64,000 nt of DNA from Escherichia coli (lineage in GTDB: Bacteria; Pseudomonadota; Gammaproteobacteria; Enterobacterales; Enterobacteriaceae): the NCBI RefSeq assembly GCF_003334355.1, contig NZ_QOWP01000001.1; one strand, given 5' to 3'. This document shows positions 51,885 to 52,078 of this stretch, one piece after another (the stretch's first letter is position 1; every line of letters starts with the position of its first letter). A program made the translations under genes and the position numbers. Below the pieces are notes generated by a model. The model had not been told where the DNA came from. It did not search any database and saw only the letters and a program-made list of their open reading frames with translations.

Positions 51885-52078
51885 GTGGTGTCGAACGTAG
51901 GTCAGATAAGGCGTTCACGCCGCATCTGACATGAATGGCACATTTGTTACCTTGTGCGCATTGCCGGATGCGATGCTGGCGCATCTTATCCGGCCTACGG
52001 GTGCCGAACGTAGGTCGGATAAGGCGTTCACGCCGCATCCGACATTAATGGCACGTTTTACCCGTGCGCATCGCATCT
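51885..52078. repeat. BIME: two direct ~55-bp REP-containing repeats flanking an inverted REP
   Basis: gtgtcgaacgtaggtcagataaggcgttcacgccgcatctgacatgaatggcac (51888-) and gtgccgaacgtaggtcggataaggcgttcacgccgcatccgacattaatggcac (52001-), with ttgccggatgcgatgctggcgcatcttatccggcctac between. Confidence 0.85.

Follow-up and report, generated by a model that had tools for sequence, protein, structure and literature searches.

The spacer between the convergent genes loiP (yggG) and speB in this Escherichia coli genome is occupied by an array of REP palindromes. The best explanation of this array as a whole is very probably a BIME-2-type element, in which approximately 1.8 tandem units of 113 bp, each built from a single y and a single z2 palindrome, fill the loiP-speB spacer; the functional parts of this explanation are those that we infer. 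The alignments and genome comparisons described below establish that the palindromes belong to the REP family and that they form a locus-specific array, whose length differs between strains and between sister species in steps of complete 113-bp units. The element is already known, as it is catalogued as a BIME-2 in a published table of gyrase cleavage sites, and the array is ordinary for that reason.

The window, i.e., the whole stretch of 64,000 nucleotides that was analyzed, is colinear with positions 3030794-3094793 of E. coli K-12 MG1655. Within window positions 48207-56207, 76 mismatches and 0 indels relative to MG1655 were counted over 8001 positions, so that the DNA derives from a strain other than MG1655. 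The 241 bases around the loiP-speB array show 100% identity with MG1655 and numerous other strains. The BIME itself is the same letter for letter in the window, in K-12, and in O157:H7 strains. The loiP coding sequence (51120-51878, plus strand) is a listed open reading frame (ORF), to which MG1655 loiP (3081913-3082671) maps with an offset of 3030793, and the agmatinase gene speB (52084-53004, minus strand) is assigned by both a listed ORF and the MG1655 annotation. As the preliminary description of this DNA had stated, the spacer separates converging genes: the stop codons of loiP and speB are located at 51876-51878 and 52084-52086, respectively, which leaves 205 nt (51879-52083) occupied by the REP array. 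At the other end of speB, the spacer to speA measures only 137 nt in the window (53005-53141), as in K-12. In many non-K-12 strains, a 732-nt gene for a “hypothetical protein” (243 aa, no NCBIfam match) is found between speB and speA, for example at 3024-3755 in the representative locus L002, as well as in loci L003, L004, L005, L007, and L008.

REP and BIME elements have been under study since 1984. BIMEs are extragenic elements in which REPs alternate in orientation (PMC3333891). BIME-2 elements contain Y and Z2 units, 2-12 in number, arranged in tandem and varying between strains, and BIME-1 elements combine Y and Z1 with a long L linker bearing an IHF site (PMC3333891; PMC1187871). In the loiP-speB spacer, imperfect palindromes of 35 and 37 nt match y or z2 and carry GTAG together with a stem mismatch, as expected for REPs (30-40 nt). 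Three such REPs alternate in orientation, are separated by short linkers, and lie outside genes, which corresponds to the structure of a BIME (two or more REPs). The order of palindromes is y, z2-like, and y, with no Z1, the z2 copy being a variant form whose foot resembles that of y, and the array is tandem with a period of 113 bp and a copy number that varies between strains, as is typical of BIME-2.

Next to the loiP stop codon, the spacer begins with an 18-nt left flank, AGCCTGGTGGTGTCGAAC (51879-51896), which aligns with GCCTACGGGTGCCGAAC (51993-52009) as the first 17 nt of a direct repeat. Judged from its sequence, this flank resembles a degenerate, residual z2 loop joined to a tail-to-tail linker; the fusion of the loop with the short linker appears to run via a GGTG microhomology, and the alleles in loci L024 and L079 have a complete z2 inverted REP (iREP) where the window has the 18-nt flank. 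The first palindrome, REP-a (51897-51931, plus strand), is of the y type; it consists of GTAG followed by an imperfect palindrome, agrees with the y consensus at 30 of 35 positions, and corresponds to the Y half of the Rfam model naRNA4. The head-to-head linker TGAATGGCACATTTGTTACCTTGTGCGCAT (51932-51961) is 30 nt long, as in all alleles and in the sister species, and leads to the z2-like REP-b (51962-51998, minus strand), which is displayed on the plus strand in its inverted form TGCCGGATGCGATGCTGGCGCATCTTATCCGGCCTAC. REP-b agrees with the z2 consensus at 32 of 37 positions without gaps and corresponds to the Z2 half of naRNA4. The tail-to-tail linker GGGTGCCGAAC (51999-52009) is short and S-like, with a length of 11 nt in every allele, and precedes the y-type REP-c (52010-52044, plus strand; 32 of 35 positions of the y consensus). 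The remaining 39 nt up to the speB stop codon (52045-52083) represent a truncated further unit, which can be aligned with gaps to 51932-~51970. This tail is composed of a shortened head-to-head linker and an inverted z2 REP that is represented by its 3' half, including the inverted-repeat arm I2 (52068-80 versus 51964-76), and homologous tails, GCCTCTTATCTGGCGC and GCATCTTATCCGGCGC, are present in other alleles. In total, the wholly extragenic array has REP orientations of +, -, and +, linkers of 30 and 11 nt, and a y plus z2 repeat unit of 113 bp (35 + 30 + 37 + 11), present in approximately 1.8 copies in the window.

A repeat search identified the corresponding ungapped direct repeat between 51880-51945 and 51993-52058 (66 nt, 88% identity, spacing 113), and in the gapped alignment of 51880-~51970 with 51993-52083 identical letters occupy 77 of 89 aligned positions. 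The best off-diagonal self-match of the 205-nt spacer has a score of 44, compared with 7.3 +/- 1.2 (maximum 12) in 300 dinucleotide shuffles. With fewer than two copies at this locus, the array goes unreported by Tandem Repeats Finder in the window. The preliminary description had presented the structure as two near-identical direct repeats of 55 bp flanking an inverted REP. The similarity of the two copies is confirmed, as 55-nt windows compared at offset 113 show, at best, 4-5 differences (best start 51887), and a palindrome of the opposite orientation indeed lies between them (51962-51998). The 55-bp repeats themselves are real in that they represent the two y REPs with their flanks; as a repeat unit they are too small, since the real period is 113 bp. 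The same description had suggested alignment to the REP consensus, where a failure to match would speak against its reading; all three palindromes matched, at 30/35 and 32/35 positions for y and 32/37 for z2.

The y and z2 reference sequences used in these comparisons were drawn from the Rfam naRNA4 consensus. All three REPs have GTAG located 5' of the stem foot and an AA/GC internal loop. When folded as RNA, REP-a forms a hairpin of -17.3 kcal/mol (z = -5.7), REP-b of -21.5/-22.0 kcal/mol, and REP-c of -18.8 kcal/mol; over the REP hairpins, the energies range from -17 to -22 kcal/mol as RNA and from -10 to -12 as DNA. The z-scores lie between -4 and -5.7 over both kinds of folding and between -4.8 and -5.7 for the RNA hairpins, and the spacer as a whole folds with z = -5.1 on either strand. 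The head-to-head linkers contain small hairpins of no significance (z = -1.0 and -1.5), whose stems differ by one compensated pair. The REP stems are conserved at the level of structure: a compensated stem pair is A-T in REP-a and G-C in REP-c, and when copies at other loci of the window are taken together with those of several alleles, 95-97% of stem cells are paired. Changes on both sides of the stem were observed at 2-3 positions, and the observed scores were reached in 0-2 of 500 shuffles. The variant character of REP-b lies in its foot, CCGGAT versus CCTGAT, a change that is offset on the other arm, and in its inner stem, GATGC versus GACGC.

Among known systems, REP325, the BIME-2 of the yjdM-yjdN spacer and the source of naRNA1-6 (Rfam RF02564), is similar to the loiP-speB array in its alternating Y and Z2 palindromes, tandem arrangement, extragenic location, and variable copy number. 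REP325 contains six units with a 12-nt head-to-head linker, whereas the loiP-speB array has approximately 1.8 units, a head-to-head linker of 30 nt, and a z2 foot that reads CCGGAT. BIME-2 elements have named linker motifs, S between tails and s, l, or r between heads. The comparison with these motifs, in which the 11-nt tail-to-tail linker is short as in S and the 30-nt head-to-head linker contrasts with the 12 nt of REP325, is one of length, and the element could conceivably be an “atypical BIME” instead of a BIME-2. The Rfam naRNA4 model, which derives from the Y-l-Z2 unit of REP325 (PMC4550694), aligns over its full length to 51900-51995 with 53.5 bits (E = 4.8e-9). It stays under the gathering score of 59.5 owing to a 19-nt insertion in the head-to-head linker.

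Two further systems share individual features with the array. The window contains a canonical BIME-1 (y-L-z1), also known as RIP, at 39209-39308 between mscS and fbaA, and the two elements are alike in being built of inverted REPs of one superfamily and in their extragenic location at gene 3' ends. This BIME-1 combines y with z1 in a single copy around an L linker of ~35 nt with an IHF site, whereas the loiP-speB element has z2 and an 11-nt linker, lacks an IHF site, and occurs as a variable tandem array. In the BIME-1, a perfect y REP (minus strand), a 35-nt L linker, and a perfect z1 REP can be distinguished; the IHF-like sequence ATTCAATATATTG at 39256 is located in the L linker, and Rfam ES036 (CssrF) exceeds its gathering score within this linker, at 39244-39286. 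With the substrates of the REPtron transposase TnpA-REP (RAYT), which requires GTAG and a stem mismatch to bind and cleave, the array shares GTAG, the AA/GC bulge, and CC|TAC sites at CTAC ends (PMC3333891). It differs from these substrates in its z2 copy, which, being a variant (CCGGAT foot, GATGC inner stem), has no TGCC|TGAT site, the type I cleavage site described for z iREPs (PMC3333891), and a substrate role at this locus is a prediction. The tnpA-REP gene was not found within the window.

The variation of the array was analyzed in 5,426 complete E. coli genomes by means of two BLAST surveys; 60 evenly spaced rows of each were listed, and representative loci were inspected. Three REPs in a spacer of 203/205 nt were found in about 37 of 60 rows. 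Longer spacers of 318 nt with five REPs and of 429 nt with seven REPs accounted for about 1 and 6 rows, respectively, and shorter ones of 90 nt with one y REP and of 47 nt with one degenerate hybrid palindrome for about 3 and 4 rows. Every BIME allele inspected has linkers of exactly 30 nt and 11 nt, and the steps in spacer length are therefore whole 113-bp units; consistently, Tandem Repeats Finder applied to the seven-REP allele in locus L004 reported a period of 113 with 3.5 copies and 95% matches. In some alleles, a z2 REP directly follows the loiP stop codon (left flank GCRTTWTATTAC), and the 47-nt allele resembles a fusion product of this first z2 and the truncated last one (L003 1880-1926; spacers of L024 and L079).

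In about 8 of the 60 rows, the spacer contains unrelated genes between loiP and speB and has no BIME. Expressed as fractions of this 60-row sample, a BIME is absent from about 13% of E. coli genomes, and about 12% carry a single REP or the 47-nt stub; thus, no particular copy number is required. The presence of unrelated genes in the spacer of roughly 13% of genomes also marks it as an insertion hot spot. Examples are the O103:H2 strain 12009, with a DUF1266 gene in this place, and strain SCU-301, where a dagR-containing island is found (L006 204-2001; L007 1744-2000).

Other Enterobacteriaceae were scanned with one genome per species, using the conserved C-terminus of speB as an anchor. An array of y and z2 palindromes occupies the same spacer in E. 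albertii (five REPs), E. whittamii (four REPs), and Escherichia sp. E1V33 (three REPs), and a further E. coli, SCPM-O-B-8794, has two. One or two REPs in a different arrangement are present in Salmonella and Citrobacter. In genera without this REP family, the loiP-speB spacers are 36-150 nt long. Those of Atlantibacter and Leclercia, at 44-49 nt, are formed by an intrinsic terminator hairpin: the Atlantibacter spacer contains a textbook bidirectional terminator, AAAAAAGCGCCGAGAGGCGCTTTTTTT (L054 7574-7605), and that of Leclercia (L071 9431-9466) a hairpin followed by a T run. The Atlantibacter terminator was recognized by direct reading of the sequence after a simple terminator scan had overlooked it, probably because A-T pairs lengthen the stem into the T run.

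Two BIME-2 elements, at tldD-yhdP and sucB-sucC, were reportedly described as strong gyrase sites by Espeli and Boccard in 1997. That gyrase cleaves inside the loiP-speB element in vivo has been shown by others, in agreement with the gyrase binding that the preliminary description had proposed for structures of this kind. In the Topo-seq study of Sutormin et al., the element is listed in Table DS3 as “BIMEs2 3082469-3082615, 146 bp, yggG>-<speB”, in a class that takes in single REPs too (PMC6379681). The numbers of cleavage sites in this element are 0 with ciprofloxacin (Cfx), 2 with rifampicin plus ciprofloxacin (Rif+Cfx), 0 with microcin B17, and 2 with oxolinic acid (PMC6379681), compared with chance expectations in 146 bp of about 0.07 and 0.17 sites, as calculated from the totals of the same study. 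The tldD-yhdP and sucB-sucC elements belong to the same BIMEs2 class and are likewise cleaved in vivo without transcription (Rif+Cfx). With 35/13/3/10 sites for tldD-yhdP and 6/4/0/5 for sucB-sucC, they exceed the weaker loiP-speB element, which has 2 sites per positive condition and 0 with ciprofloxacin alone (PMC6379681). Table DS3 also includes the window's other two REP clusters, with zero gyrase cleavage sites (PMC6379681).

Published data on RNA ends are available for the same region. On the speB strand, transcripts have been shown by others to end by the action of Rho beyond the array and not at an intrinsic terminator. Adams et al. mapped a Rho termination region antisense to loiP, on the minus strand at MG1655 3082496, with a score of 3.3 and p = 1e-6 (PMC7815308); it corresponds to window position ~51703, about 380 nt past the speB stop codon and beyond the array. 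No curated Term-seq 3' end falls within MG1655 3082500-3082899 (PMC7815308), an interval that spans the spacer; REP reads are also hard to map uniquely. In the speA-speB spacer, a Term-seq 3' end was mapped at MG1655 3083827 (window 53034, minus strand), 30 nt upstream of the speB start codon (PMC7815308). Our terminator scan of 51600-52400 on both strands identified no hairpin followed by a T run or other terminator-like site, and a promoter scan identified no sigma-70 promoter in the spacer. REPs within 15 nt of stop codons are said to affect translation, as described by Liang, Rudd, and Deutscher in 2015. Such an effect is unlikely at this locus because the hairpins are farther away, with the first paired base 22 nt from the loiP stop codon and 40 nt from that of speB.

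These features suggest a role for the element at both the RNA and the DNA level. Transcripts of both genes would run into the array, with Rho terminating them farther downstream. By analogy with other REPs, the hairpins could then halt 3'-to-5' exonucleases, and would thereby define where the loiP and speAB messages end and stabilize their 3' termini. This scheme, including the stabilization of upstream mRNA that the preliminary description had mentioned for such structures, is inferred from the REP family (Newbury, 1987; Peters, 2012; Dar and Sorek, PMC6061677). As DNA, the palindromes may serve as a transcription-independent gyrase site that would absorb positive supercoils arising from the convergent transcription. 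The copy number probably shifts when units recombine unequally or slip against each other, or through TnpA-REP (RAYT) strand exchange, the latter being conceivable because the GTAG and stem-bulge signals are kept in all three REPs. A more far-reaching scenario, which we consider unlikely, is that the Escherichia REP array displaced a short ancestral bidirectional intrinsic terminator, which would persist in Atlantibacter and Leclercia, that the 3' ends of the polyamine operon speAB thereby became dependent on Rho and REP hairpins, and that a lineage-specific copy number (1-7) tunes 3'-UTR stability, antisense read-through into loiP, and gyrase loading.

Several alternative explanations of the array were considered. 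The most serious of them, which we regard as possible but not probable, is that the array is a selfish or neutral passenger spread by the REP-associated transposase and by recombination, with no locus-specific function and with gyrase cleavage and hairpins as by-products. The variation in REP number between E. coli genomes (0 to 7), the replacement of the spacer by unrelated genes in about 13% of them, the weak gyrase signal at loiP-speB, and the lack of a mapped stable 3' end in the spacer are all consistent with a passenger; on the other hand, the array is retained at this spacer in four Escherichia species, its stems are upheld by compensated changes, and a terminator hairpin is found at the same place in relatives without REPs. 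Since such relatives have a hairpin here, some 3'-end structure seems to be needed. The same hairpin also bears on the proposal that the array acts as a bidirectional Rho-independent terminator for loiP and speB, which would fit the stable GC-rich hairpins close behind both stop codons and the presence of terminators at this position in REP-less relatives. However, no T run follows any hairpin of the array, the terminator scan was blank, and the published Rho-dependent region lies past the element on the speB strand, so that intrinsic termination is very improbable. The array could also encode a discrete naRNA4-like REP small RNA that binds HU and condenses the nucleoid, given that 51900-51995 aligns with the model from end to end, that hairpin structure rather than sequence is what counts in these RNAs, and that most REP elements are transcribed (PMC4550694). 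With a score under the Rfam gathering threshold, a head-to-head linker of 30 nt versus 12 due to the 19-nt insertion, and no promoter found in the spacer, this proposal appears decidedly doubtful.

The preliminary description had raised IHF binding as a general property of BIMEs, which would imply a BIME-1/RIP-type element working via IHF, and no positive evidence for it was found at loiP-speB. The best matches of the palindromes are to y and z2, with no z1, the tail-to-tail linker has 11 nt versus ~35 nt for the L linker, and the IHF consensus WATCAANNNNTTR has 0 matches in 51879-52083 even with one mismatch allowed. In the same search, ATTCAATATATTG at 39256 in the linker of the BIME-1 at 39209-39308 was recovered as a positive control. 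IHF binding is a property of the BIME-1 L linker and does not extend to this element; the BIME-1/IHF explanation is refuted at the sequence level, and we give it hardly any credence. Two spacer ORFs on the minus strand, 51871-52038 and 51915-52076 (55 and 53 aa), are present in the program-made ORF list and might be taken for proteins. They are made of REP sequence, are broken or resized in the 47-, 90-, 318-, and 429-nt alleles, and are unannotated in all genomes inspected; accordingly, they were rejected as coding, and the chance that they are proteins is negligible.

For the BIME-2-type element as identified here, the value of the analysis is mainly in annotation, with little beyond it. The locus illustrates clearly how a BIME-2 array gains and loses complete units of 113 bp, based on a survey of more than 5,000 E. 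coli genomes and on four Escherichia species, and the plain terminator hairpin in the same spacer of REP-less relatives was obtained as a by-product. It also serves as a reminder that ORFs and sub-threshold small RNA matches in REP spacers are repeat artefacts.

Similar repeat clusters had been noted at 11510-11690 and 63140-63300 by the preliminary description, and REP clusters are indeed present at both places. The cluster at 11528-11682, between the converging genes ygfZ and trhA, has the order z2, y, z2, and its segment 11602-11679 passes the Rfam naRNA4 gathering score with 67.7 bits. The cluster at 63184-63310, between the converging genes yqgF and yggR, is atypical and consists of a degenerate y, a z2, and a z1. 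Elsewhere in the window, Rfam matched the known genes for 6S RNA (ssrS, 25190-25373) and SibC RNA (26022-26172) at the positions annotated in K-12.
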